DNA of 64,000 nucleotides from a virus. Made by a program: the position numbers and the translations under genes. The DNA lies in IMG/VR virus record IMGVR_UViG_3300027747_002377, positions 1 through 64,000 of that record; one strand, written 5' to 3'. Of this stretch, positions 20,628 through 45,510 are shown piece after piece; within the stretch, counting starts at the first letter, position 1, and each line of letters opens with the position of its first letter. Below the pieces are notes generated by a model that saw only the letters and a program-made list of their open reading frames with translations, was not told the DNA's origin and did no database searches.

Positions 20628-22973
20628 TTAATACGGATTGAGTTTGGTACCGATGCCAATGTTTTTCATAATTCCTGAAACCGTTTCATCGGATGGTCCG
20701 GGTATGCCTACTGGGACTTGACTTGTTTCTGAGCGCATTACACCACGAGAACGTGCTCGGCCTGCAAGGTGGCCAAAATTCTCAAGTCCTACTTGTCCTG
20801 TAGAGGTATTACGTGCAACTCCCATTAAAGTATTAAGTGCTCCATAAGCAAGTTGCGGATCATTTGCAACTGCCATGTGTATACCAGACTGGCGTAAGGC
20901 GTTATCAAATTGTTGGGCCAGCATTGGATAAGCAGATTTGCTTATACCTTTTGTATTAAAAAGTTTATTTGCGGCGTCAATAAATTCAGGATTTCTGTTT
21001 TCTATTACGCGACCATATTTAGTAACTGTGTGCGGATCAGGTAACTCTATTCCATTTGCTGCTGCATGTTGTTGTGCAACGTTTGCAAAAATAGCGTGAG
21101 CTTGATCCCCGATGCGTCGTCGGAAATCATTGGTGGTCATTGGGACTAAACCACCTTCTGTTTTTAAATGCAGAACTTGACTTGAGCTTTGTGGGCCAAG
21201 AAGTGAATTAAATGCTTTTACTCTATCTGAACTTGTTGCGTTTTCATATGTTCTTGCTGATATTTCTGGATCAGATCCTGTTGTTTGACCAGTAAAGCCT
21301 GCATACTCAATTCTTCCTTCAGCAAGGGCTTCTTTGTCAAGTGCGCTTACGTTACGCATTGTCCGACCGCCAGAGGCTGAAATAACTGCGGAAGGATTTG
21401 CAACTTCCGGAGTTACACCGTGTACATACTCAGAACTAAGGGTTTCACGTGATGCGCCTTGACGACCTTGTTTGGTTAGGCCAGCCACGTTTTCTTCTAC
21501 ATAACGATCAAGAAGATCTTTAGGAGTAGCGCCCCTTACTTCACCAGTACCAACTTCCATTGTGCGTCCGGTAAATTTAGTTTGCCCCGGATCAAATGTT
21601 TCTCCGCCAAGTGCAACATTACCTGTTTTCTCATAAGCTTTTTGCATTATATGGGAAAGCTCACCACTACTAACTGCGGCGTGCGCTTGATCAAGTGAAA
21701 TACGTTCTCCAGTTTTTGCAAAAACTTCTGCAACAAGGTTTGCAGCTTTCAAATCTTCTGGAGAAACATTACGTTCAGGCCTTGCACCACGGGTATACCA
21801 TGGGTCTCTGATTTCTCCTTTAATTGTTTGTACTGGAGGAAGTTCAAACCTACCTTCCCTTGCTTTCCGAGTATGTTCTCCTGTCCATGGATCGGCTTGT
21901 TGCGTTAAACCAGAAATAAATGAATCAACTTTATCTATTGTTGAAGGAACAGTAGCTGAAGTTTGTTGTGAGACGTTAAAAAGTTCCGGCTGCACTACAT
22001 TTGCACTTTGACCAGTTAAGGTTTCTCCGCTTGATGGTTCAACTCCAGCTAGGGAACGCATCCGCGCCAAAGCATCAACTTTAGGCATTTCTGAAAGTTC
22101 TAATTGAACTGGGTCTGCTGGGTCAACGCCACGACGAATTTCTTCAAACGTTAAACCTGCTTTACGTTTATTTGCTACATCAAGAAGACGTGCAGTAGCT
22201 TCTGACCGTTGTTGTTGTGCAACAATGTCGCCGGTCTGTTCTGGAGCAAATGTCTGGCTTGAAGTGATTACTTCGCTTTCAGTTACAGGTTTTGTACTTA
22301 AAACCTCACGAACAGGCGATCCAACCGGAGATCCTTTTGCAATTTGTACTTCTTGGGTTGAAACTGGCACATCTGCTTGGTTGTAACGTTGTGCAGTTGT
22401 TGGAGGGGTTACATCGCCAGAATTACGGATTGTGTCTGGATCAACGCCACGGTCTATCCCTAATCCCCCTAAGAAGCTTGAAACACGGTTACCAATATTT
22501 TGTGCGCTTTGTTTAATGGTTGCGCCAGCATTTTGTACAGCTTGACGACCTTCTGGAGTAACAGCAAGTGCAACGCCACCTGCAACAAGTCCGGCGCCAA
22601 GTGCTGCACGACCTAAATTACGAACTAAATTATGTTGTTGTGCTTCATCTTCAATGCGATCTGATTCTTGATTAATATAGTGTTCGCCAGTAAGTGTTGC
22701 GTCGTGTGTACCTACAACTTTTGAAACGTTGTTATCTGGCGTAACAGGTGAATGCAAAGCGCTATCTGCATCAAAGCGCTGCATAGAAACCGGCTGATCG
22801 TATACAATATTTGCGCCAGGGTTACTTAGAACCCTATTTGCCCCTGATTTACCAAAATTACGTACAAATTCATGTACATGAGGCGCCATCGCCATCTTTT
22901 CTTCTGGTGTTTGAGGGTATTTATTGCCTGTAGAGGACGCCCAGAGAGCAAAATCCTGCGGTGATACGGGCAT
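20628..22973 (-). CDS. Large putative internal virion protein
   Basis: 781 aa, one hydrophobic helix, first gene of the late operon. Confidence 0.55.
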   Translation of the reverse strand: MPVSPQDFALWASSTGNKYPQTPEEKMAMAPHVHEFVRNFGKSGANRVLSNPGANIVYDQPVSMQRFDADSALHSPVTPDNNVSKVVGTHDATLTGEHYINQESDRIEDEAQQHNLVRNLGRAALGAGLVAGGVALAVTPEGRQAVQNAGATIKQSAQNIGNRVSSFLGGLGIDRGVDPDTIRNSGDVTPPTTAQRYNQADVPVSTQEVQIAKGSPVGSPVREVLSTKPVTESEVITSSQTFAPEQTGDIVAQQQRSEATARLLDVANKRKAGLTFEEIRRGVDPADPVQLELSEMPKVDALARMRSLAGVEPSSGETLTGQSANVVQPELFNVSQQTSATVPSTIDKVDSFISGLTQQADPWTGEHTRKAREGRFELPPVQTIKGEIRDPWYTRGARPERNVSPEDLKAANLVAEVFAKTGERISLDQAHAAVSSGELSHIMQKAYEKTGNVALGGETFDPGQTKFTGRTMEVGTGEVRGATPKDLLDRYVEENVAGLTKQGRQGASRETLSSEYVHGVTPEVANPSAVISASGGRTMRNVSALDKEALAEGRIEYAGFTGQTTGSDPEISARTYENATSSDRVKAFNSLLGPQSSSQVLHLKTEGGLVPMTTNDFRRRIGDQAHAIFANVAQQHAAANGIELPDPHTVTKYGRVIENRNPEFIDAANKLFNTKGISKSAYPMLAQQFDNALRQSGIHMAVANDPQLAYGALNTLMGVARNTSTGQVGLENFGHLAGRARSRGVMRSETSQVPVGIPGPSDETVSGIMKNIGIGTKLNPY

Positions 22974-23652
22974 CTTATTTAAATTCTTTGATATATCTGA
23001 TTTTAAGCTCTATAAACATGCTGTGACCCCTATCGGCGCCTTAAAATAGGCCATTTTGGGGTAAAAATTACGGCAGGCATCAAGCAACTATAGCGCCAGA
23101 GGGTGGGCTGAAACAAAAAAAGAAAGGGTAGATGCACGGGTGCATTGGACGGTGCGTTAAGAGTAGGTTATACGTTATGTATGTGTGTAGGTTGAGGCTT
23201 CCTCTGCGCTTGGGAGCGTATGTTAAGACATTTGCTTCGATTGATAGTATATAGTGCTTCGATTAAAAATTTTATTCGATGGGTGAAGCAGGATTTGTGT
23301 TTCACCTGCTGCGTTTAAACCAGGTTTACCCTGTTATACTTCCCAAACCTTAATTTATATGCCCTTCTCCCTTATTCTCCCTCCAAATCCCTTCCAGCGC
23401 AACGCATCTCAGCGTTTCCGTCAGGTGGAAAGTGGCCAGCCAGGAAAATTCGGCAGGAGCTGTGGATATCTTTTCTTGCTTTAATTTTAACTACGTTTTT
23501 ATTTAGTATAACCTTTTGCTGCGTAAGATTTGTATTTATTCGGGAATTAAATTTTGTATTTAATACTACTTCGTTGTAGACGACTTCCTCCAGGCTTCGA
23601 TGCTTGGATGCAGTCCTCTTGACTGCAATCAATTCTACCAAAGCTAACTCCA
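22974..23652. promoter_or_regulatory. Divergent non-coding control region (late leftward, early rightward)
   Basis: Strand switch, no credible ORF, repeated TTTGTATTTA. Confidence 0.55.
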
Positions 23653-23877
23653 ATGAACAACACATCTCCTTTCCAAGATGCTTTCTTTGCTGCAGAAGAG
23701 GCTGCAGAAGAAGCTGCAATGAATGAGTTTATGGCTAAGAATGACGCCAACGCAACTCTTGCAAAGGTTGCATTCAAAGTTGCATTCACAGCTGCAGTAG
23801 CAGGTGTTGGATACCTTGCAACACGCCCCAGAGTAAAACGAGCAGTTGCTGAACTGTTCAAAGCTGAATCCGTTTAA
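23653..23877 (+). CDS. Early small protein with TM-like segment
   Basis: First ORF of the plus-strand array. Confidence 0.6.
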   Translation: MNNTSPFQDAFFAAEEAAEEAAMNEFMAKNDANATLAKVAFKVAFTAAVAGVGYLATRPRVKRAVAELFKAESV

Positions 23878-23999
23878 GCGGTCAGGGAGGTGCAATGCCT
23901 CCCGCAGCTCTTACCAACACTACGTTTTAATGTTTTGTTGGTTCTCTGAAGTAAGTTTTGTATTTAAACTTGCTTCGTTTTATCCTTTGCACCACCGGT

Positions 24000-24260
24000 A
24001 TGACCTCTACCACCGCTGTGTACAACATGATCCAGGATCTACGTATCCTGGCTCGCAGAGATTCCAGTGAGTATCACCCTATGGTTGATCGTGACCTGGA
24101 ACAATTCCGCCTCTCCTTCCTTGATGCCTTCGAGGCATTCATGGACCTAGGCAAAGGTGATCTCCAGCCATTCATTGTGGTTGGAAATAAGATCATCTCC
24201 AGTAACAAAGAGTTACTGAAATGGCTTAAGCATGAGCTTGAGCTAGAAGCTGACTGGTAA
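24000..24260 (+). CDS. Early hypothetical protein
   Basis: ATG 17 nt after a TCCTTTGCA box. Confidence 0.6.
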   Translation: MTSTTAVYNMIQDLRILARRDSSEYHPMVDRDLEQFRLSFLDAFEAFMDLGKGDLQPFIVVGNKIISSNKELLKWLKHELELEADW

Positions 24261-24335
24261 CCAGACCAGCGGGGAGGTTTGAGCCCTCCCTCAGTTATTG
24301 CCCAGTAATGGGCACCAACCAAACAGGAGTACCCA

Positions 24336-24530
24336 ATGCTTTCATGGTCACCAGAAGGTTGTCCTACTCACCGGGTTACCTGGTATGGAGGACAGTCAAC
24401 TCAAATACACTTTGAAATACTACAGAAAGACGAATGGCGCCAAGTGGATATCAAGACCTTAAATGAACTACCTACCGGCGTTAAAGAATTTCAAGAACTG
24501 CTTATTGACTGCTATCAAGATTTTGTCTGA
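24336..24530 (+). CDS. Early hypothetical protein
   Basis: AGGAG SD and ORF. Confidence 0.6.
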   Translation: MLSWSPEGCPTHRVTWYGGQSTQIHFEILQKDEWRQVDIKTLNELPTGVKEFQELLIDCYQDFV

Positions 24531-24605
24531 TAACACTTAAAGATTTATTAACTTACCCAATCGCAGCCTGGGTCAGGATGCTGCTTATTCCTTTGCTTTC
24601 ACAAC

Positions 24606-25013
24606 ATGTCTTCAGCTAACAACGGAATGATCGTCGGTACCATCGTGTCCGACATCATTCAACGTCAACCTAATGATCAACTCGCAGTAACACAATTCCG
24701 TGTTGCTCCAGTCGACGCCAGGAAAGAAGATTCTCCTATTCCATTAACTGCTTACAACGGTATTGGTACCAACATCGTTGATAAGTACAATCAAGGTGAT
24801 CTTGTAAGCGCTTCTTACAGATTGCGCTACCAAACCTGGCAAGACCCAGAAGGCAAGTATCTCAGCCGAATGGAAGTTGTAGTGACATCCATTACTACAA
24901 TCCGTCTCGGTAAGATCAGTACTGCCAAACGAGCAGAAGCTGCAGCTGGAACTGACAATCCAACTGAACCTCAGCTCAACATCCTAGAAGAAGCTAAACT
25001 CGCTTCTTTGTAA
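24606..25013 (+). CDS. ssb: Single-stranded DNA-binding protein (OB fold)
   Basis: SSB pattern: G.LVSASYRLRYQTWQD.EG. Confidence 0.7.
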   Translation: MSSANNGMIVGTIVSDIIQRQPNDQLAVTQFRVAPVDARKEDSPIPLTAYNGIGTNIVDKYNQGDLVSASYRLRYQTWQDPEGKYLSRMEVVVTSITTIRLGKISTAKRAEAAAGTDNPTEPQLNILEEAKLASL

Positions 25014-25204
25014 TAAATTTTCACTCTATAGGGTAGTTTTAGCATTTGTTGAAACTACTCCTTGGAATGAATTCTCCTACTGATGGTCACAAGAAGGAGA
25101 TCCTTTGATCCCTTTTCTGTGGTCCTCACCTGAGGCCCGCTGTGTGAAACTTAAGGTTTTCTTTATGTTTCCACACAACAAATCACTTCCTTTCCACTAA
25201 CAAC

Positions 25205-25444
25205 ATGTCCAAACCTTTCATTGCTTTCGTCGGACTCACACTGACCGGAACAGTAGCTTGGCTCAAACTCAACGAAGAACAGCAGGAACGCATCAAAGAA
25301 GTGATCAAGATTAACCGGCGCAAGCTTGCTAACCTGATTGCTCCAAGTGAAGATCTTGGTGACCTAACAAACGCAGTAGATCCTGCTGTCCTGGAAGAAA
25401 TTGCTGCATTCTGTAATGCAACTCCAGGCACAGAAGAAGCCTGA
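25205..25444 (+). CDS. Early hypothetical protein
   Basis: ORF with leader box. Confidence 0.55.
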   Translation: MSKPFIAFVGLTLTGTVAWLKLNEEQQERIKEVIKINRRKLANLIAPSEDLGDLTNAVDPAVLEEIAAFCNATPGTEEA

Positions 25445-25522
25445 CACCGCAACAATTTAATCATTTTTATGGAGTGAGTTTGTATTTAAGCTCGCTCCGT
25501 TTTATTCCTTTGCAATCAAACC

Positions 25523-25759
25523 ATGCAACGTCAAGACTACTCCTTTCTCTATCAGAAGAACAGCGACGGTTACCTCGTTACAATCCGTGGTGACTTTGCT
25601 GAAATGACCCGTGTGAACGTTGTTGAGAAACGTTCTCAATACATCAAACTGGAAGCTCCTGTCGATGTAATCCGCCAGTCAGTCAATCAACTGATCGGTC
25701 GAGGCTACCGACAAGTCAAAGCTCTTGAGCTAAGCTGGAGAGCACTCGCTTCCGATTGA
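25523..25759 (+). CDS. Early hypothetical protein
   Basis: ORF with leader box. Confidence 0.6.
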   Translation: MQRQDYSFLYQKNSDGYLVTIRGDFAEMTRVNVVEKRSQYIKLEAPVDVIRQSVNQLIGRGYRQVKALELSWRALASD

Positions 25760-25850
25760 CAATCACAAGAAGGGGCGTGAGTCTCATGAGTCTTACGCCT
25801 TTTCCTGTGGTTCTCACCATGAACCACAACCCATTTACAATCCTTTGCAA

Positions 25851-26063
25851 ATGAACCCTGTTATTGCCGCCATTGCGTCCGGTACTCTTCTCGGTTTCGG
25901 AACAACAATGGTTCTTCAAGATCTAATCAACGTTCACGTCTCCAAAAGCTGCAACACAACGCTAAACCAAATAGTTACCGTTCGTGGTGTAACTGGTGAC
26001 GCAAAATACTGCATCTCTACAAAACTTCTTCACGGTCCCAGTAACCTCAACCTAAATCAATGA
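25851..26063 (+). CDS. Early small membrane protein
   Basis: N-terminal TM helix, two Cys. Confidence 0.55.
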   Translation: MNPVIAAIASGTLLGFGTTMVLQDLINVHVSKSCNTTLNQIVTVRGVTGDAKYCISTKLLHGPSNLNLNQ

Positions 26064-26326
26064 TCGGTTTCTCAATTGAATTCAAACGCTGGTACTTTGT
26101 ACTACGTGGACCACTGGGTAGAGTTTATTTAACTGCCGGTTTTGCTTCAAGGCCGCCAGTTGTAATTCCTAGTGGCTTTACTACGTGGAAAGATTTTTTT
26201 GATAAGGAAGGACATGATTTGTGTTCACCTGACGAACAGCCTGAAGATACCTTAACTCAGTAACAACTATCCTGGCATTCAGCGCCAACCTGATGTAAGC
26301 CCAGGACATTCCTTTGCAACCTAACA

Positions 26327-26605
26327 ATGCTTAACTCTGGACAACAACTCGTGGCCAAGGTCATGGGTTACAACCCCCTCTCAGAAGAGGAAGGTGCAGA
26401 ACCTACAGACCTCTTCGCTTGCAACCTTCCTAACGACATCAGAGAAGGTTGGCCAGTTGTCAAATGGAAAGGCAACTGGTACAACGTTCCAACCATGGAG
26501 GAAGTAGAAGAGTGGACATTCGACTCAGTATGTTTCACCCCAGATGAAGATGAAGTCGAACCAGACGATCCGAAATCCTGGCTTTCAATCCTTGGAATGA
26601 TCTAA
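26327..26605 (+). CDS. Early acidic hypothetical protein
   Basis: VEPDDPKSWLSILGMI C-terminus, leader box. Confidence 0.6.
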   Translation: MLNSGQQLVAKVMGYNPLSEEEGAEPTDLFACNLPNDIREGWPVVKWKGNWYNVPTMEEVEEWTFDSVCFTPDEDEVEPDDPKSWLSILGMI

Positions 26606-27440
26606 CAACATGAACTTCATTGACGAACAACGCAATGCTGACATGCTTGATGCCCTGTCAGACATTGCAAACGAACAAGAAGCTGCAATGCGTGAGTCTG
26701 ATCAGTCTGACTGGGATGGTGTATGCGAAATCTCAGCAGACAAACGCAACGCCTGTGACAACTACAACGAAAGGTACGTCTTACCTGATTACAGGGTCTG
26801 ACCTTTCTAAATAGCTTAACCAAACCTTAATATCCGCAATCAACACAAATGAACTATGACTTCTACATTCCTGGTAACGTGTACGACTTAACAAATCGCT
26901 TACCTGCAGACAGGAATGGAGACCGTTTCGGTATGGTCTTATTCTTCCATCCAAAAGTTGGTTGGACCTGTGAGCCCTGGTCCGATGCAGCATACTTTCA
27001 AAGTGAAGGCTACACTTCATGGACTCACACTCCAACCATGCCAAAAGTTCTGATTCATTCTCCAATGCAATCAGATATAGCAAACCAAAACTTGATTGAA
27101 GGCTGACCTCTACTCCATTTCTAACGCCATGGACATCAAAGACATCACAATTGAAGATGACATCATTACAATCACAGCACTAATAGAAGATAAAGTCCTT
27201 CTGCGTCTTTCTGATAGTGTCAACCCAGCAGAATACGGTCCTGCAATCTGTACTGCTGTAATCGACATTACAGATGTACCAGATTGGATCAATCTATCTC
27301 TGCTATCACAAATCGAACGAATGCACGTCCTTAAAAGTCTTTTTAACTTTGACAAACTGGATTGGGAAGTAGTTGAGAATAATATTGACGATTTTAATGA
27401 CGTTTATTAATCACCACAACCTCACAAATTTTAATTAGAT

Positions 27441-27773
27441 ATGACTAATCAACACCCGATCACCCCACCGCCTGAACTTGTTGAGCAGTGGGTCCGTATG
27501 CTTGAGTACCTCCCAGACAAACAAGTTTTTAGTGAAGTTGCCCAATGGGGCGCCGACCAGGAGCTGGAGGCGTGTTGTGAGTGGCTTGAAGCTAATGGTT
27601 ATCCTGGCACTGCTTTTGAACTCAATGATCTCCGCCGCCCCCAGCCGCCGAGCTTGAAAGAGCAGGCTTTGACTGCGCTACACGCTGTTGCGACAGGAGC
27701 AAATGACACCCGTGAACAATACCAAGACCTTGACACCATCCGCCGCGCACTGGAGGCCCTGCCCAATGACTGA
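27441..27773 (+). CDS. Cyanophage-type hypothetical protein (QWGADQELEACC family)
   Basis: ITPPPELV...QWGADQELEACCEWL...PPSLKEQAL motif. Confidence 0.7.
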   Translation: MTNQHPITPPPELVEQWVRMLEYLPDKQVFSEVAQWGADQELEACCEWLEANGYPGTAFELNDLRRPQPPSLKEQALTALHAVATGANDTREQYQDLDTIRRALEALPND

Positions 27774-28136
27774 ACAATCTACAAAACTGCAAGATCAACA
27801 CCCAATTGAACTGTTGATTCTTGCTTTCTTCTTTGTTGCCGCCGCTATCATCGACCTTTGGCAAGCTCTACACCTGGTTTACTCCAGGGAATTAGCTTTA
27901 CAAAGAAGGGAAGCTAGGACAAATGTACTAGTCCCGGTAGTAGAACAGGTCGCTCCAGTAGAAGAAATTACTGCTGCCCCACCATCCGCTAAAGTAAAGA
28001 CGACCTCAAGGGCCGCCAAAGGCTTTAACACCTCTGTAAAACCTTAAGAGAATCTAAAGATCAACTGGTTTGATTTGGGGTTAAGCCTGCTGCGTTTAAC
28101 CCCATTCTTTTTGTCCTTTTGCGTTTAACTCTCACC

Positions 28137-29840
28137 ATGCAATTCTCCCTCCCTTCCAACCTCAAAGAACAACTTATTGCTTACGATCCAAAGTTAAAAG
28201 CTTTGGCTAAGGCTACCGCTACTACTACAAGCAAACCCAAGAAACAACGCACTCATCTTGGCTTGCCTGATGATATTATCCCTGCACACATTGTCACACC
28301 TAATGATTTACTTGCAGCAGTAACTGCTATTAACCAAGAAGAAGTTCCATATCGCTATCATACCTTTAGTCGTGTTACATATGATAAAGATATGGTAGCC
28401 ACAACAAAACTTAAAGCTGTTGTGTACCACTACGAATCCTTGTGGATTGCAGCATGGTTACCTAATTCAGGTGAAGATTATATCTATGGGTTTACTTATG
28501 CATTCAAGAATACAGAAACTGTACGTAAACAGGTATACATTAGGAGCATAGATATAAAAGATACTACTATTAAAAAGTATGGACGCATAGAGTTCAATGT
28601 CTATACAAAGTTTGTAACAGCAGAAGATGTATCTAATGGATGTCAATCACACTATTGGGAGCATGGTAACTTCAAAGGATACAATGCAAAAGGCAAAGAG
28701 ATAAGGCCACATGTAATACAACCATTTCGAGAAGCTATTGTAAATTCAATACCTAACTACACCGATGGTAATGTATGGGACAGAATAGATACAGCTAAAA
28801 ATAATTACTATGAACTATTGGAATTACGTTATGCAACAATACCAAAGAATCAAAACATTGTGCCTAGCTTTGAATTGTATATGGAAATACTAGGGGCACG
28901 GTATACCGAAGATTCAAGTAAATCATTTGCTGTTATGCAGGAAAAACTTAGCAAGCCATGGTTTAAACGTTACATCAATGAGCAGTGTCAATTAATTATT
29001 AATACGTTCAACGATCCAGCTACTAAAACTAAGAAAGAAATTAGCTCGATACATAAAAGACTTATGCATACTCTAGGTTGGATTCTAGATATTCTTGATA
29101 TATATCCTGATTGTCCTATGGATTATTTGCAGACTGGTATACAAACTAATATGTTTTTATCTGTCGGCCGTATCTATGCAATGCATTATTACGGAAATGA
29201 TTCGTCGTTAAAGGAATGGCTAACAGCTAATCTGCCAATAGCATCATTGTTTAATATGCTAAACAAGTTTATAGAAGATGAAAAGCCAAGTAATACGTAT
29301 AAAGACAGACAATTAGACTGTTATATGATTACATTCTATTCATTTAGAGATACAATGGACATGATTGTTAATGTATTAACTGCAGGCAAAGAACTTACTC
29401 CACCTAGGCGTTGGCGTTATACTGAGTTTCATGATCACGTGCAAGCAGAAGCCTGGAAGATAAATAACCTAAACCAAAAACTACCACAGGATTTATTTCC
29501 TGCTCCTGTCAAAGTAAAACTTGATGATGAGACTTGGACATTTATTCAACCCATAGATACCCATCAGCTTGCGCAATGGGGACAAGCAGTACGTAACTGT
29601 GTGGGTGCATCATCAGCATATGCTAATGCTGTGAAAGCTAAGAAACAATTCATTGTTTTATGTATGATTGACAACAAGCCTGTATTCACAATACAACTTA
29701 AGGTATCTAACGGGACCATGCATGTAGAGCAGATTGCAGGACCAAGTAACAAATCATTAACATCTATAGAACGTGAGAAATATCAAGGTATATTCCAAGA
29801 AGCTTTACGGATCCGTGAGTCTGAATTGTGTTCTGCATAA
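28137..29840 (+). CDS. PcfJ-like domain protein
   Basis: C-terminal HD...QLAQWGQAVRNCVG...FTIQL...QIAGPSN. Confidence 0.7.
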   Translation: MQFSLPSNLKEQLIAYDPKLKALAKATATTTSKPKKQRTHLGLPDDIIPAHIVTPNDLLAAVTAINQEEVPYRYHTFSRVTYDKDMVATTKLKAVVYHYESLWIAAWLPNSGEDYIYGFTYAFKNTETVRKQVYIRSIDIKDTTIKKYGRIEFNVYTKFVTAEDVSNGCQSHYWEHGNFKGYNAKGKEIRPHVIQPFREAIVNSIPNYTDGNVWDRIDTAKNNYYELLELRYATIPKNQNIVPSFELYMEILGARYTEDSSKSFAVMQEKLSKPWFKRYINEQCQLIINTFNDPATKTKKEISSIHKRLMHTLGWILDILDIYPDCPMDYLQTGIQTNMFLSVGRIYAMHYYGNDSSLKEWLTANLPIASLFNMLNKFIEDEKPSNTYKDRQLDCYMITFYSFRDTMDMIVNVLTAGKELTPPRRWRYTEFHDHVQAEAWKINNLNQKLPQDLFPAPVKVKLDDETWTFIQPIDTHQLAQWGQAVRNCVGASSAYANAVKAKKQFIVLCMIDNKPVFTIQLKVSNGTMHVEQIAGPSNKSLTSIEREKYQGIFQEALRIRESELCSA

Positions 29841-29922
29841 CTACGTTTTAAACAACTAACGTAAAGCCGGTCCTAGGTCAAGACCTTAAACTGACCTTTC
29901 CTTTGTACCTTCTACACACACC

Positions 29923-30120
29923 ATGAACCCAATAGAAATTCACAACACAACAGAAGCCATGATCCGCTTTGGTGGTGGCTTCGTCAAAACATTTGCTACT
30001 ACCGTCAGAGTAGCTGACACCAACAACAGAACCCGTCTCTTCCAGGCTTTCCCAGAACTCCTGGAGAAGTACGGTCCCAAAAGCAACTTCTACTCCTCCG
30101 TCACCTCCACAGAACAATGA
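29923..30120 (+). CDS. Small phage protein (GGGFV..A...AD..N family)
   Basis: Motif. Confidence 0.6.
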   Translation: MNPIEIHNTTEAMIRFGGGFVKTFATTVRVADTNNRTRLFQAFPELLEKYGPKSNFYSSVTSTEQ

Positions 30121-30440
30121 GGCAAACTGAAATTCACTTCGAAGAATCCAAGTGGAAGTTGCGTGACGGCAGCACCCACGTCTACAAAATGCCTTCAAGC
30201 AGAAGGCTTGAACTAATCATCAAAGCTTTAAAAGATATTGTCGCCACAGAGAACAAAGTTGACTACATGTACAGAGAGCTACCTTTCTGGGCTGACGAAA
30301 AAATTGAAGAGGCTATTGAAACCCTAGAGTTCATCACTGAGTACGACCCCACAGACGAAATCTGTGATGGGGAACCACCAATCACTGCAGCTGAAATGGC
30401 ATCTGCTTCCTGGAAACAACACCTCGAATTTCATTCCTGA
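30117..30440 (+). CDS. Hypothetical protein
   Basis: ORF, ATGA overlap. Confidence 0.6.
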   Translation: MRQTEIHFEESKWKLRDGSTHVYKMPSSRRLELIIKALKDIVATENKVDYMYRELPFWADEKIEEAIETLEFITEYDPTDEICDGEPPITAAEMASASWKQHLEFHS

Positions 30441-31925
30441 TCCACTTATGACAACTGTGGACGAGCAAAGAAAGCTGCAGTACACTGCTCATGACCTGAG
30501 CATCCACGCTCAATCACCCTCATCCTCTGCACCTACCATGGAAAAACGAATCCTCTCACTCACTCCAAAAGAAGCTGAAGTTGTTATCAAATATTTAGTG
30601 ATTGCCATTGATGAAATGTTGGGCGATCTAAACATGGGAGAAACTTCAAACACTTCTTCCCTTCTCATCAATGATGAAGTTGACCTACTAAACGAAATAG
30701 TAAATCAAATCAAAGGTAATTGAGAACCATTTGCAATAAGCTAATGCAATCCGACAGCAAGCAAAGGTTTCTTACAATTGCCGTCTGCCTAGATGGTGAA
30801 TGGAAAGAAACCGTTTACCGTACAGATGACCCCAGCTGGAGGGAAGCCTTTCAAATCTTAAAAGAATCTAAGAACAAACTTAAACTTGTTTACCACTGAA
30901 TCAACTCAAATGAACCTTCCCATTCCACCAATCAATCCATTTCCTCCAGTCAATCCTATAAACAACTTCACAAACCTAGACATCAACACACCCCAGGGAC
31001 ACTGGGGTGGACATGTACTCAAGGTCGGCATCATGACCTTAACCCACTTAATTGGACCACAAAACAAGCAAATCAATGTCCGCTCCATGGACATCGGAAT
31101 TACAAAGCAGATAGATCTTTATTGAATGAAAAACACGCCACAGTTCTTTCTGTACCGGAACAACTCCAAGGAATTTATTCAAAACATCATGAACAACATC
31201 GAATTTCCTTCCAATAACGACGCCAAGGATCTAAGCCAGCGGGACAGCTACAGCCTCCAGCAGCTGCAAGCCATGCAAGTAGTGGCACGCATGAAAGAAG
31301 CTGCAGACAAGGTAGGTGCTGGATTTGTTGGAGGTTTTGTCACACCAACTGGAGAACGCTTCCTTATGTCCAACATGGATAGCGACAGCAGCCAGCTCAA
31401 AGCAATCAATGCCAAACTAAACGAACTGCAGAACAGGGATTAAAGCTGATACAATTTTAGTAATTGCTATCGCTTCATGGATTACCTCAGTAAGATCAAC
31501 ACGATCATCAGTACCATTGAGGAACTACAAGAGAACCCTGAGTTCTTGAGTAAACTCACAAGTGAATCGGAGATCTCCCTTGATGAGGCCCTGGAGCTGT
31601 TCTGTTCAATCGAAGACATGGTAACTCCAACACCAGAAAAAGAAATAGATGATCCAATCAGGTGGCGTTTTGAACAAGACAAAGAAAACGAAATTGATTC
31701 TGCAAATTAAAGCACCTTTAATCGGAAATTAACCGATCATCCTTTTTACACGAGACAAAGTAATGCTTACTGGACTTGCTTCTTTATGCGGATTTGTTGG
31801 GACCACCTACTTGTGTGGTCCCATTGGGATAAATCCATTTATCTACAATCCTGCTTATTTCCAACAACAAATTTATCAACCAACTTTTCCCTGTTACAAC
31901 TATGTAAAGAAACCATTAAATCTAA

Positions 31926-32669
31926 CTACGGAAGAGCGTTAACGCTCATACTGTTAACATAATCTTGCAGTAGATCATTGGCTTTTTGTTTTGCATATTC
32001 TTCTTTTGCTGCTTCATTTTGGCTTTGCGTAACAGCATTGTTGTAAGCAGGCATAAGCTGCTCATTGTATACGCGTTGTTGAATTAAACTTTGAGGAGTC
32101 TGAGAACGTGTTGTATTTGTATCTACGCCTAAATTAAAACCGTACTCTTGAGTCCCAGGTTTGCCTATTCCTAATTGAGAATCAACTTGGTGTCGTCTAA
32201 ATTTTTCAAGAGCATCCGGATTGTTTTGAAAAAATTCACGCATAGCTGGATCACTCACCGATGCTAACGCTTCTTCTGAACTTACTTTTGGAGTATGAGA
32301 CTTACCAAAACTAAGCATTACGCCGTAATCATTACTTCCTGGTACACCGCCAGGGTGATAAAAACCTTCTAACGCAGCACGGTAGCCGCTCTGATGGTCA
32401 CCAACTGGAATTTTTATGCTCCCACTAACTGCATTAGAACCTGGTGTGTAATTTGCTTGTATGTCAGTACCGTACTGATTAACGTACCCTCCTTTTATTT
32501 TTAAATTTTGATCAGTTCTATATGCAGGCATCGGCCTTAAAGGCCTATCAATTGGCTGTGCACCAGGGTAACCTATTTGCGTGCTCGGCCCAGCCCCAAA
32601 GGGGCTTACTCCTCCCATCTGGGCACCTGCTTGGGACGTAATGGGAGTAAAGAAAGATGAATCTGGCAT
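31926..32669 (-). CDS. Pro/Gly/Gln-rich virion-like protein, antisense within the early region
   Basis: 247-aa ORF with its own TAGAAT -10-like box upstream. Confidence 0.6.
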   Translation of the reverse strand: MPDSSFFTPITSQAGAQMGGVSPFGAGPSTQIGYPGAQPIDRPLRPMPAYRTDQNLKIKGGYVNQYGTDIQANYTPGSNAVSGSIKIPVGDHQSGYRAALEGFYHPGGVPGSNDYGVMLSFGKSHTPKVSSEEALASVSDPAMREFFQNNPDALEKFRRHQVDSQLGIGKPGTQEYGFNLGVDTNTTRSQTPQSLIQQRVYNEQLMPAYNNAVTQSQNEAAKEEYAKQKANDLLQDYVNSMSVNALP

Positions 32670-34598
32670 TTTAAATATTTTTACTTATTCTATCAAACTC
32701 CAACTTCAACTGGTTTACTTCTGATGTACAGAACCAAAGCTCAGCACTTCTACAAGTCTCAAGATCCTGACTACATCCACAGCAATCATGAAGGAGTGCG
32801 CAAGTTCTGGAAGATCTATCGAAAGATCAAGATGGTCATCAAAACACTGTATGATATCAGTTCAGTTCTTGTTATCATTATGAGCTTTGATAAGGTCTAT
32901 AAGTATAAAAGTTGGAAGGTAATTAAAACCTGGCAAGTTGCTCAACTCATAGAAAGATTCCCGCGAATGCTCAATAATTTTAAACATAACTTCATGCCTG
33001 CCTTCCATTGAATCTTTTAATGTAACACAAGCTACAATTTAACCTGCTCTTAACACCATAGCAGATGCAGGCAGGTATCCTGGATGAGCTAACTTCTCAG
33101 TGGTACCAATGGTTTCTACTCGCGCAACCTCGTGCAAAAGCATAGATTCATGCCTCGCATAATGAGATACCGGAGAGTAAATAAATCATGGAATCCACCA
33201 GCGAACCAGACCCTGCCAGCAAATCAAATCCATTCACTTCTCACCTTGTCTGGGCCATCATGACAAAGACAGCCACAGGCAAGAGTGAGGTTATCAGAAT
33301 CGTCCGCAACCACGAGGAAGCCGACCAAGCCGTTCAAGATAACCCATCCATGTTCTACAAGTCAGGCCCCATTCTGCTAGCCTAATTCAGCATCAAAGTT
33401 CCCTATTTCATGAAGATGCCAGTTCTTGGTTACACCGTGTTGATGCACCACCAGGGAGTGGGGACATTTGCTCCTCACTTCCCTTCCATAGATGAAGCGG
33501 AGGAGTTCAGCAACGCCATGAGGATCCTCACTGATGGCACTGCAATAAGTGAACCCATCCCAGTCGTAGCCAGTAAGAATTACATCGTCAACTTCGACGA
33601 AGCATCAGCAGTAACTTAAGAACCTAACTAAACATGATTACCAGGGTTGTGCTATCGTTTAGGTAGCACAACTTTTTTATACATGGCAATAGTAGTCAGT
33701 GTTTCAGTCCCCGACGCCCTACACCAACGGTGGAAAGAATCAGAGCTAGATCTGAGTCCCTCCTCCCTATTTCAAACAGCGTTAGAAACTGAACTCAACA
33801 AAACAAATCAACACCTTGTCTACTGGAGCAACCGTGCTCTACAAGCAGAGAAAAAGCTTAAGACAATCTTAAATCTAATCAATGCATCAGACAAGGAAGT
33901 TAAGAAGTTCTTAATCTTTGATGATATGAAGTGACCTTCACAAAGCAATCTCTTGACCTGGCTTGAATAAAGTATAAAATTGTACTGCACCAACAACACC
34001 AACCATGATTAAAGAAATTGACCTTGACTTCGACACAGTAGACCTTGAGTTCGATCCTCCCCACAAGGAGGAAAGCACGGAACCACCAGCTGAAGTGATC
34101 ATAACGCCAGAAGTAAAACATTCACACTTACTTACATTCAATGAAGAACAATTAGATGCAATGAATGATACGCTCCCTTTATTTAAAGAACTGGGAGTAA
34201 TTTCTGAAGATGTAGATCTTGATCAATTTATAGATGAATGCTTTGTTCGTGGCCTCAATGAACTCTTTTTTGAAAGTATGTCCAAACTAAACGCATCTAG
34301 TGAATCTTAAGACAATATAAAAATTAATAAAAAGTGAAGATTTTATTCGCACTTCCTTCCCTTATGTCACGCCCACCGCCAGGTAGAATATATAGTATAT
34401 AAGTAACTATATAAAGTATATATAAACCATAGACAAAGTATAAATAAAAGGGGCCGGGCACTGTACCGGCATTTTTATTGGCAAAAAAAGAGCCAGTCCC
34501 CCTCGGAACCAGCTCCTGAATCCTTTGCACACTTGTCATCCTACTCCAAAACCTCTATAGTGTGCAAGTCCATCGGACCTAACCTTTGCAACCCTCCT

Positions 34599-35045
34599 AT
34601 GAACTCCTTCTCTTTTCAGAACATTCAGTCTCTTGAGATCACTGCAGCCGATCAGCCGTCCCTGAACGTAGCAGACGATCAGTTGGTCCTCACAGCTACC
34701 CGTAACGGTAGCCGCATCATGATCACCGCTCCTCTTAGCCACATCATCCCTACTCCAGTACAGACAACTGTCAAGTCAAACTTAAAGGCTTCACGGAAGG
34801 TTAGCTCATTAAAAGGTAAAATCCTTGATCCTTCTGATGAGCGCGTAGGAGAAAAGAATGGTAATGCAAAACTTAATGTTGGCCAGGTAAAAGTAATCAA
34901 AACAAAGCTTAAATGTGACAAATTTATGGGTGATTACAAATCAAGGACCGCAGCACACAGGGTACTTGCCGGTTGGTACGAAGTAGATACGAGCTGCATT
35001 TATCAGATCGATAACAACCTTACCTGGAAGCACGTAACGATCTGA
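34599..35045 (+). CDS. Protein with C-terminal HTH of the type found on HNH endonucleases
   Basis: GEKNGNAKLN...LAGWYEV...I..NLTWKHV. Confidence 0.5.
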   Translation: MNSFSFQNIQSLEITAADQPSLNVADDQLVLTATRNGSRIMITAPLSHIIPTPVQTTVKSNLKASRKVSSLKGKILDPSDERVGEKNGNAKLNVGQVKVIKTKLKCDKFMGDYKSRTAAHRVLAGWYEVDTSCIYQIDNNLTWKHVTI

Positions 35046-35653
35046 TGGTTAAATTTTTTAACGTCACGGTTGCTTTTGGTGATGGATGCCCCATCCGCAC
35101 CGTAGTAATGGCTCAAACTGCTTTTGAAGCACACGAGAAAGCACTCAAGCGTTACCCTGGATCCATCAGAGCCTTGGTTAAAGGGGTAACAACAGAACCA
35201 GATCCTACGAACTCACTTTGTTTTGCACCATGATCAACACAACCGTTCACGAAGGTTTGACTGTTCATTACGATGATGGAAATGAAAATAAAGAAGTATC
35301 TTTAACATTTGAATGGGACGAAGAAACCCATCCACAATACAATTATCTTAATGAAATGACATCGGAACAGTTGATTGCCATGCTTGTAAAACGCGTAGAA
35401 ACTGTATTAGATGAAACCAATAATGATTAAAAGTACGTTAACTTTCTGAGGTAAATTATGACAGGAATGACCCCAAGGTTTAAACCTATCTTTAGGACTG
35501 TTTAGAACGAGGTATCAGTCGTGGGTACGCACGTGCCCACAAACACGTAGAAAAACCTTCAGATTCAGACATTTTTGAGAACATTCACGACACTGTAATG
35601 AGTGAACTGTATGAGTACTTTGATTTTTTAGATTCTGACGATTAAGTTTTCAA

Positions 35654-43063: not shown

Positions 43064-43107
43064 ACTGCTACACTGTCCACATCCATTTGCACACCTGACT
43101 TAAAGAC

Positions 43108-43842
43108 ATGAATTCTTTTGTTGGAATCGGTACCTACACCGGAGAGAGTTACCACGACAGTGGGCTCCGGTTCATGGGAATCAGCCTGCCAAAGGTAGGT
43201 AAGAGTGGTTCAGATGTACCACTTCTTATGGTACCCAATAAAGCAGCAGGCGAAACTTTTGACGTGTTCCAACCAGGGGTACGACTCCTGCTGGGAGGAA
43301 GGCTCTACCCAAACCGTCAAGATTACAAAATGTATCTGGTGCCAAACCAGCCACTGCAATTAGTTAATGACAAATCATTACAACTGAACCGCGTAAACCT
43401 TGCTGGTGGTGTCGGGTTCATCCCAGAGCAGGCAAAGGAGGATCTGTTTACGTTTACAACCATGGTGTCTGCTCCGGCGCAGATGATCCTTGGTCACAAC
43501 TGGGAAGACAGCCTCAGCTTCCGCATGGAGTCCTGGGGTGACGATGCTAAAAGGCTGACCTCCTTGCTCCACGTGGGCCGCCAGTTGAGCGTGGAGGGAG
43601 TGTTGCGCTATAACCTATGGCAGGCCCAGGACGGCTCTCAGCGTGGCACCTACCAGATAAGAGTGCGGGCTGGAATGTACTCCGTCTTTGGCAAGAATAA
43701 GAACAGGGAGGAGCAGGCGAAGGTTAAGAATGAGTTAAGTGAGGAGAATTTGTGTTCACCTGCTTCCGTTTCAAAGCCACCTGCTCAACCGGCTCGAAAA
43801 GCCTATGCCCCTACCGTTGACGAAGACTCTGTTCCGTTCTAA
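43108..43842 (+). CDS. Tandem OB-fold SSB-like protein
   Basis: Two SSB-like halves, acidic tail ending DEDSVPF. Confidence 0.65.
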   Translation: MNSFVGIGTYTGESYHDSGLRFMGISLPKVGKSGSDVPLLMVPNKAAGETFDVFQPGVRLLLGGRLYPNRQDYKMYLVPNQPLQLVNDKSLQLNRVNLAGGVGFIPEQAKEDLFTFTTMVSAPAQMILGHNWEDSLSFRMESWGDDAKRLTSLLHVGRQLSVEGVLRYNLWQAQDGSQRGTYQIRVRAGMYSVFGKNKNREEQAKVKNELSEENLCSPASVSKPPAQPARKAYAPTVDEDSVPF

Positions 43843-44962: not shown

Positions 44963-45208
44963 CTACTCAGCGTATTTTTTGAATAGTGCTTCTGTTTCTA
45001 GTTTCACTAACTTCATGCACAGCCCACGAATTACTCCCTGGCGTTGAGTAGCCAACTCAACAAGCTTACTTGCAATCTCACGTAACTCCTGCTTGCTATC
45101 AGTCTTCTCAATTGTTTGCTTTAGTTTGGCAGCAAAAAAACTATCCTCTATTGTTTCACGAAAATCTGCAAAATCAGATTGATCCTCGACCAGCTCAAAC
45201 TTTGACAT
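44963..45208 (-). CDS. NblA-like phycobilisome degradation adaptor (tentative)
   Basis: T-I-E-D-S-F...ELRE.A..L...RQ..IR.L two-helix pattern. Confidence 0.4.
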   Translation of the reverse strand: MSKFELVEDQSDFADFRETIEDSFFAAKLKQTIEKTDSKQELREIASKLVELATQRQGVIRGLCMKLVKLETEALFKKYAE

Positions 45209-45510
45209 AGGTGTCGAGCATTTTGTTTACTGTAAGGCAGTACGCGCAGAAGTCAAGTTTAAACAAAATTTAACTTGACCTGCGCCCCTGAAACCCTAGA
45301 CTACCACTGTCTTTTCTCGTCACCATGGCATCACCAAAGAAGGCAGGATCCGGTTCTAGCTTCGTTGTCCACAATGCAAAACGCACATCCATTGGTCAGG
45401 GTCTACGCAAGCGTGGTTCCTGGAACGTCCAACGCAAAAAGCCAAGCCGAGGGCAAGGCAAAGGTTGATTAACAACCTAGTCCAAATACTTTGCACACCA
45501 CCTGAACGTA

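Follow-up and report, generated by a model that had tools for sequence, protein, structure and literature searches.

A conserved pyrimidine-rich box near the start codons of early genes in a freshwater virus genome: a possible RNA-level leader element

A pyrimidine-rich word of nine nucleotides (nt), TCCTTTGCA, referred to here as the box, was analysed in the IMG/VR virus record IMGVR_UViG_3300027747_002377. The window is the first 64 kb (64,000 nt) of this 82,372-bp record, the completeness of which is estimated at 96%. The box is real, conserved and non-random in its placement, as it recurs 17 nt ahead of the ATG of several small genes and is retained before the orthologous starts of related viruses. 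The reading we favour, tentatively and with a probability of about 0.4, is that it would act at the RNA level, as a leader element for ribosome loading independent of a Shine-Dalgarno (SD) sequence, or for the control of such loading, on early mRNAs. The genes concerned are designated early from their position, and this status is presumptive.

From position 23653 onwards, the + strand carries small genes in a block and, beyond them, replication genes, among them thyX and the genes for a family A DNA polymerase, a primase and single-stranded DNA-binding (SSB)-like proteins; the large structural genes occupy the - strand at 1-22973 and approximately 62-82 kb. Exact TCCTTTGCA was found five times on the + strand of the 82,372-bp genome and never on the - strand, against approximately 0.35 copies per strand predicted from base composition. 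When up to one mismatch was allowed, the window contained 29 copies versus 23 ± 5 in shuffled sequences, a count that by itself is not above chance. It is the position of the box, rather than its copy number at this stringency, that carries the signal. An ATG begins exactly at +17 from the box start in 6 of the 20 + strand copies with up to one mismatch (binomial P 3.4e-7; 1e-5 after correction for 32 offsets), and three instances of the arrangement TCCTTTGCA-N8-ATG were counted in the 82-kb phage versus approximately 0.01 expected. TCCTTT is the top enriched hexamer in the region -40..-1 of the + strand genes (12/65, 12.9-fold), and the copies of the box are concentrated at the head of the + strand block, in its first six or seven genes. 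Both genome-wide positional statistics and a comparison with relatives had been proposed in a preliminary description of the stretch. The former uphold its observation, and the latter, detailed below, showed the box kept before orthologous starts while the spacer sequence drifts. All seven box-ATG pairs listed there were recovered with the 17-nt spacing, its additional copies at other spacings are real (the one placed at 43082 is numbered 43083 here), and the A/C-rich spacer between box and ATG was confirmed (79% A+C, with G at 3 of 56 positions). The boxes of the early block and their accompanying hairpins are given below, with distances counted from the box start to the ATG.

23947..23977, + strand: class A hairpin with a covarying stem and the conserved loop TTTGTATTTAA; ends 5 nt before the box; -10.8 kcal/mol; scored terminator-like.
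23983..23991, + strand: box TCCTTTGCA; ATG 24000 at 17 nt; 86-aa early protein.
24563..24584, + strand: class B hairpin (GCAGCC...GGATGCTGC); ends 4 nt before the box.
24589..24597, + strand: box variant TCCTTTGCT; ATG 24606 at 17 nt; 135-aa SSB-like protein.
25141..25177, + strand: hairpin; ends 10 nt before the 25188 box; -12.9 kcal/mol.
25188..25196, + strand: box variant TCCTTTCCA; ATG 25205 at 17 nt.
25469..25500, + strand: second copy of the class A hairpin; ends 5 nt before the box; -18.9 kcal/mol.
25506..25514, + strand: box TCCTTTGCA; ATG 25523 at 17 nt.
25841..25849, + strand: box copy; ATG 25851 at 10 nt; probably not functional as such.
26270..26306, + strand: long-loop hairpin (TCCTGG...CCAGGA); ends 3 nt before the box; -9.9 kcal/mol.
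26310..26318, + strand: box TCCTTTGCA; ATG 26327 at 17 nt.
30727..30735, + strand: weak box-like CCATTTGCA; ATG 30744 at 17 nt; two mismatches and no hairpin; the weakest pair, which may be a chance match.

A + strand hairpin usually lies 3-12 nt upstream of the box. The class A hairpins share a consensus fold with two compensatory pairs and U.G-to-C-G changes. In an alignment of 11 class B sequences, the stem was invariant apart from one pair, in which the SSB-gene and gene-1 copies differ by a G-C to A-U switch. Other boxes are preceded by hairpins unrelated to classes A and B, and the box is the sole element common to all of them. The best hairpin ending within 12 nt of the box reached a mean of -10.7 kcal/mol in the six main box genes versus -4.7 kcal/mol at the same position in 122 other genes (Mann-Whitney P 0.003). 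The G.U pairs and compensatory changes indicate that the hairpin structure is selected in the + strand RNA and, thus, that transcripts run through the hairpin and the box. The unpaired probability of the region from -20 to +12 was 0.69 in the box leaders versus 0.51 in other + strand genes, a comparison that is descriptive only, as it covers six genes; for the box itself the value was 0.63. An Rfam search of 22900-35500 returned no match at E values up to 1. The 3' arm of the class A hairpins is formed by the word GCTTCG(A/T)T, of which four copies and one GCTCCGTT variant lie within 2.3 kb of the + strand (23234-25501), the genome total being seven + strand sites; the word often follows TAT-rich -10-like words by a few nt. 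A reading of TGCTTCG as a T4 MotA box was rejected, as inspection by eye revealed no -10 element at the required distance.

Conservation was assessed in five IMG/VR contigs and 11 metagenome contigs with related early regions (SSB identity 66-99%), the metagenomic relatives having come from one metagenome scan. By closeness, the relatives referred to individually are L025 (99%), L026 (93%) and L034, the most distant; G001 was also compared. Three to five genes have orthologues whose starts are preceded by the box: those of 24000, the SSB-like 24606, 25205 and 25523 retain it, and that of 26327 does so in the two close relatives L025 and L026. The start codons are supported by conservation of the encoded N-termini. 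The 8-nt spacer and the 4-5 nt preceding the box differ between relatives, and the variants of the box itself are mostly pyrimidine-for-pyrimidine changes; in CCCTTTGCA, TCTTTTGCA, TCCTCTGCA, TCCTCTTCA, TCCTTTCCA and TCCTTTTCC, the tract stays rich in pyrimidines. The modal box-to-ATG distance is 17-18 nt, among paralogous copies as well as among orthologues. For gene 24000 the distance is 17 nt, or 14 nt in L025, where 3 nt are deleted between box and ATG; for the SSB gene it is 17 nt in eight of the nine distinct relative sequences listed, L034 being the exception. The gene-25205 orthologues carry TCCTCTTCA at 17 nt or TCCTTTTCC at 18 nt, and those of gene 25523 have the box at 17 or 18 nt. 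In L026, the 10-nt copy corresponding to 25841 is absent and the 26310 copy survives as TCTTTTGCA at 17 nt; this loss of the one and retention of the other indicates that spacing matters. The first gene of G001 is preceded by a class A hairpin, a class B hairpin and the box in series, where the window has a class A hairpin and the box. The comparison of the two orders suggests that the box follows the ATG and not the upstream element.

The leader of gene 34599 appears to provide the clearest sign that the box functions in leader RNA. The elements of this locus are as follows.

34488..34517, no strand assigned: hairpin with an A-run on one side and a box on the other; terminator-like on the - strand.
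34521..34529, + strand: conserved box copy with no start codon following; ends 3 nt before the -35 of the 34533 promoter.
34533..34561, + strand: predicted sigma-70-type promoter TTGTCA-17-TATAGT; 10/12 consensus matches.
34568..34578, + strand: small hairpin in the leader, GTCC-ATC-GGAC; ends 3 nt before the box; its pairing was deduced from the sequence.
34582..34590, + strand: box variant ACCTTTGCA; ATG 34599 at 17 nt; approximately +15 of the predicted transcript.

The predicted start of the conserved TTGTCA-17-TATAGT promoter lies about 15 nt upstream of the 34582 copy, which therefore falls in the predicted transcribed leader. Relatives keep both hexamers of this promoter (TTGTAA/TATAGT), and its spacer drifts. 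Their gene-34599 leader consists of a hairpin of other sequence (GGGG...CCCC), a box-like CTTTGC, a C-rich spacer and the ATG, the box reading (T/A)ACTTTGCT at 20 nt. A hairpin of different sequence also occupies the position of 34488..34517 in relatives.

A DNA-level function was weighed against these data. The box might represent the -10, discriminator or start region of compact early promoters with leaders of at most 10 nt, class A supplying a -35-like TTGTAT from its loop; the hairpin would then be the terminator of the upstream unit, in a terminator-promoter cassette similar to the promoter-early stem-loops (PeSLs) of T4-type phages. Class A does read TTGTAT, 17 nt, TATCCT at 23958-23986, with a strictly conserved loop sequence, but the pair matches the consensus at only 7 of 12 positions, and TTGTAT was dropped as a plain -35 element, since it forms a hairpin loop on a covarying stem. 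A -35 is missing from class B and the other cassettes, in which the TA-N3-T words disagree (TATTCC, TACTCC, TATCCC), and none of the boxes was listed as a promoter in a consensus scan. The small early genes each possess a cassette of their own, and the cassettes flank insertions and deletions as PeSLs do (PMC4122927). The 29899 and 43083 boxes stand at the start positions expected from the -10-like elements TAAACT and TGCTACACT, and in Prochlorococcus 6-8% of primary starts are located within 10 nt of the start codon (PMC5607370). However, the canonical-looking promoters of this phage (TTGTCA-17-TATAGT at 34533, TTGACC-16-TAAAAT at 33953 and several extended -10 elements, TGnTAnnnT) are unlike the box contexts, and the 34582 copy lies downstream of a promoter of this type. 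The G.U pairs and covariation indicate that the whole hairpin acts in RNA, so that read-through transcripts carry the box, and L025 tolerates its 3-nt deletion between box and ATG. Pfam searches of the 78 window proteins revealed no sigma factor or RNA polymerase domain, nor any S1, KH, cold-shock or RegA-like domain. A promoter function of the box is, on balance, somewhat unlikely. In a promoter for leaderless mRNA, the -10 element ends 6-8 nt before the A of the ATG, and the spacing cannot shift. The box ends 8 nt before the ATG, is not -10-like, and relatives tolerate 5, 9, 11 and 15-17 nt at this place; the near-leaderless promoter, which the preliminary description had named as the alternative to its own proposal, is disfavoured. 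The TTGCA of the box was also considered as a sigma-54 -12 element and rejected, as there is no GG at -24; cyanobacteria are not known to possess sigma-54. Further boxes at other distances are the following.

29899..29907, + strand: box variant TCCTTTGTA; ATG 29923 at 24 nt; directly 3' of the -10-like TAAACT.
43083..43091, + strand: box variant CCATTTGCA; ATG 43108 at 25 nt; 8 nt after the extended -10-like TGCTACACT.
45487..45495, + strand: box variant TACTTTGCA (TTTGCACAC subtype); ATG 45511 at 24 nt.
47071: box variant TCCTTTGAG; ATG at 11 nt.

Two further promoter-like sequences were observed. Just before the 29899 box, GTCCTAGGTCAAGACCTTAAACTG occurs once (29870-29893) and matches GTCCYAAGCATGACATTAAACTGC, which recurs approximately 30-55 nt before at least five early genes of the polar freshwater Synechococcus phage S-EIVl and is probably a promoter of that lineage. 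At 23332, an extended -10-like TGTTATACT is followed by about 140 nt of pyrimidine-rich sequence (23330-23480). Both are kept in G001 and the small ORF at 23359-23484 is not. The region is a candidate for the main early promoter with a long leader, or for a small RNA.

S-EIVl is the nearest cultured relative of the phage (primase 36% identical over 98% of its length, polymerase approximately 41%, similar genome size and layout), and the DNA runs containing the stretch are all from freshwater or lake metagenomes; no RNA run was listed for it, and two runs presumed to be RNA probably consist of DNA contigs of relatives at about 93%. A picocyanobacterial host is likely, given the distant similarity to S-EIVl. 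SD-like matches of at least 5 nt precede 6 of the 65 + strand genes and 3 of the 63 - strand genes, and leaders are A/C-rich and G-poor throughout the genome, as they are in S-EIVl. The preliminary description had placed the box where an SD would stand. The SD is indeed missing at the box genes, but this does not distinguish them, as nearly all genes of the phage are without one, and the rarity of the SD throughout the genome renders the phrase 'in place of an SD' uninformative. Rather than replacing the SD in an SD-using genome, the box adds a word to some of the SD-less leaders. Its noted resemblance to the 16S rRNA 3' tail is genuine as a resemblance: cyanobacterial 16S rRNA ends in ...CACCTCCTTT, with TCCTTT common to box and tail, although nothing found here gives the sharing of UCCUUU a function. 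The box is like an SD in its site on the mRNA (its end 8 nt before the AUG) and in tolerating a few nt of variation in spacing; it differs in being equal to the tail (UCCUUU) rather than its complement, so that pairing with the tail is impossible. Pairing with 16S rRNA outside the anti-SD was rejected as well, as the nine cyanobacterial 16S sequences scanned offered only G.U-rich partial matches within known helices, none of them conserved, and no conserved strong (Watson-Crick) complement. A phage RNA or small RNA partner, as suggested earlier, was not borne out by a search for complements in phage RNA: the sole good one (23757-23769, TTGCAAAGGTT, 11-nt, inside gene 23653) is not conserved in G001 and was taken as chance.

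Picocyanobacteria are thought to initiate without SD through ribosomal protein S1 on pyrimidine-rich leaders, as stated in PMC5607370 with reference to Mutsuda and Sugiura 2006. In the favoured reading, early mRNAs would bear a conserved leader cassette with the box as its single-stranded core: a stem-loop is followed after 3-12 nt by the pyrimidine tract UCCUUUGCA, then by about 8 nt of G-poor, A/C-rich spacer and by the AUG. In a host that would almost never use SD pairing, the 30S subunit could settle on the exposed pyrimidine tract immediately 5' of the start codon, probably via S1, and initiation could thereby take place internally on polycistronic early transcripts rich in hairpins. The role of the hairpin would be to leave the tract accessible; it may, in addition, stabilise or attenuate the RNA. 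S1-dependent initiation in Synechococcus has in common with the present case a pyrimidine-rich single-stranded stretch before an SD-less start codon, including those of internal cistrons of polycistronic mRNA, in hosts that are (here probably) picocyanobacterial. The composition of the box, its variants and the unpaired probabilities given above (0.63 and 0.69) agree with such an enhancer, S1 binding being putative. The tract described by Mutsuda and Sugiura in 2006 is reportedly loosely defined (approximately -46 to -15) and fixed in neither sequence nor spacing, whereas the box is a conserved 9-nt word at -17..-9 that is absent as a pattern from host genomes. A phage-encoded factor may also recognise this site and tune early translation, given that only this phage clade preserves the exact sequence. 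S1 or ribosome binding, an effect on expression and the phage factor are what we infer from these patterns.

Several observations weigh against ribosome loading through the box. The arrangement TCCTTTGCA-N8-ATG occurs 26 times in 151 Cyanobiaceae genomes versus approximately 45 expected at random, with at most three per genome, and five other cyanobacteria gave four matches without enrichment. S-EIVl has no box but a different recurring upstream motif, and the cyanobacterial host is itself deduced solely from the distant similarity to that phage. Many + strand genes with intergenic gaps have no box. Relatives differ in the distance to the ATG, with 14 nt for L025, 18 nt for L026, 20 nt at gene 34599 and 24-26 nt for L034. 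The box of the last, or its TTTGCAC core, abuts the hairpin and stays with it rather than with the ATG (24 and 26 nt). The conserved 34521 copy has a hairpin before it and no ATG after it, just upstream of a -35 element. Finally, C8 and the TTTGC core of the box are strongly conserved, whereas S1 binding is not sequence-specific. Judged from the genomes searched, the box is not a general host signal and its exact sequence is confined to this phage clade; a literature search for the motif retrieved only primers and unrelated sequences. The fixed spacing originally claimed holds as a position tied to the start codon with a mode of 17-18 nt; it is not strict, given the other distances in relatives and the 34521 copy with no start codon. 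The proposed role as a translation-initiation element or regulator site is supported in part: the linkage to start codons, the hairpin covariation and the 34582 leader copy favour an RNA-level function in or near initiation, or a regulator site, and the missing 16S and phage RNA complements and host-wide signal weaken it.

The attachment of the box to the hairpin in L034 and the 34521 copy with a hairpin and no ATG would be accounted for if the cassette were an elongation signal, either a nut-like or rrn-like boxB-boxA site at which host Nus factors load, alone or together with a phage antiterminator, or a weak intrinsic terminator or attenuator. Such cassettes would set read-through along the hairpin-rich early operon, and a host factor with few targets would explain the missing genome-wide enrichment. 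The architecture matches that of cyanobacterial rRNA spacers, in which boxA, GAACCTTGAAAA, comes 0-3 nt after a boxB hairpin (PMC8461337). The likeness to rrn- and lambda-type antitermination sites comprises a hairpin, a few nt and a conserved single-stranded word containing CCTT near the start of a transcription unit, the hairpin here ending 3-12 nt before the box and the 34582 copy lying at about +15 of its predicted transcript. In sequence, the 34582 variant with its flanks (AACCTTTGCAAC) agrees with boxA at 9/12 positions when compared ungapped by eye, but the main box does so at only about 6/12, and the host boxA is very strongly conserved, being near-invariant. The known pattern is one nut site per operon, not one per gene as in the many copies here, and neither the 17-18 nt mode, a preferred distance to the ATG, nor the loss of the 10-nt copy is explained. 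Both class A hairpins, with T-rich tails, scored as terminator-like and class B and the others did not; the U-tracts are poor (3-7 T in the first 9 nt past the stem), and a terminator would give no reason for the conserved GCA. We regard an elongation signal as possible but doubtful.

The restriction of a sequence-specific core to this clade and the clustering of the copies at the head of the + strand block would also suit the operator of a phage translational repressor or other RNA-binding protein, comparable to T4 RegA or to gp32 autoregulation, which would tune or shut off these genes without a positive role in ribosome loading. The box occupies the place of an SD, so that a bound protein would block the 30S subunit, and the SSB-like gene itself carries a box. 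However, no RNA-binding or RegA-like domain was found, although most early proteins are without a recognisable domain, and the pyrimidine-for-pyrimidine drift suggests that composition outweighs exact sequence. Early phage mRNAs are processed or controlled through T7 early RNase III sites and T4 RegA/gp32 operators; RegA sites overlap the AUG, and RNase III sites are long imperfect duplexes. The present cassettes are like them in being structured intercistronic elements or leader sites near the AUG, and differ in that the hairpins have 5-14 bp, with no sequence or structural similarity shown. A repressor operator appears distinctly unlikely. A bolder possibility, which we hold to be unlikely, is that the hairpin and UCCUUUGCA would form a phage-clade-specific recognition unit with a dedicated partner: a nut-like boxB-boxA mimic loading Nus factors at every early gene, or a 16S-tail mimic by which a phage-encoded or tail-binding ribosomal protein would recruit or exclude ribosomes. 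If true, the latter version would constitute a sequence-specific non-SD ribosome-recruitment code.

The cassettes also coincide with sites of genome rearrangement. In tblastx comparisons of 23600-28000 with L025, L026, L034 and L009, early genes were reordered, inserted or replaced, with breakpoints at the intergenic cassettes; reordering was likewise seen in G001 and L034. The right edge of a replacement of approximately 1 kb in L025 is the first base of the class B cassette, and in L026 two copies of the 23867-23989 intergenic cassette, 87-95% alike in translated comparison, flank an extra gene. PeSLs of T4-type phages are comparable as stem-loop cassettes before individual small early genes, repeated in a plastic region and bordering insertions, deletions and swaps between close relatives. 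They differ in carrying a full sigma-70 promoter (-35, 17 nt, -10) and an SD between stem-loop and start codon (PMC4122927, PMC2839356); the present phage, which is not T4-like, has only about 22 nt from hairpin to ATG, with neither canonical promoter nor SD, and the pyrimidine box is the shared element. Duplication and shuffling of cassettes, as around the extra gene of L026, raise the alternative that the box is a functionless remnant shared by descent. This is highly improbable, as the box is the only element common to all hairpin classes and is kept while adjacent bases change, and as the length of the spacer is preserved and its sequence randomised.

The novel features are the preceding hairpin classes, the tolerance in spacing, the leader location and the cassettes at gene gains and losses; the box itself would be a variant of known element types and, on present evidence, constitutes no new category. 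How start codons are found with little use of the SD is poorly understood, including in picocyanobacteria and their viruses. This lineage provides a compact, conserved and positionally constrained leader word, and its natural spacing and sequence variants form a ready test set for SD-independent initiation or its control. As the hairpin-box cassettes mark breakpoints of early-gene shuffling, the idea of a mobile regulatory cassette reaches beyond T4-type phages. Should a specific phage factor read the box, it would represent a new early-expression switch.

Other features of the genome were noted. The terminal 126 nt of the 82,372-bp record (82247-82372) repeat positions 43-168; the assembly closes on itself, and the nominally linear record is a closed or terminally redundant genome. 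Two SSB-like genes are present, 24606-25013 (the 135-aa early protein, a weak match to PHROG 44) and 43108-43842 (244 aa, with a Pfam SSB domain). The 81-aa protein at 44963-45208 (- strand) had no Pfam match at E 0.01 or better. Among the - strand late genes (1481-22973 and 62-82 kb of the genome), TCCTC(A) is found 12-25 nt before the ATG in 6 of 63 versus approximately 2 expected, and ATAGAA is also enriched upstream. G+C-rich hairpins stand right behind early-gene stop codons at 23884-23905 and 24273-24294, with GGAGG/CCTCC-like stems and loops reading TGCAA(T/A)(G/C), and are also present in L034 and S-EIVl. The sequence CCTGCTGCGTTTAA occurs twice (23297-23312 and 28088-28101), each time as the 3' part of an intergenic hairpin.

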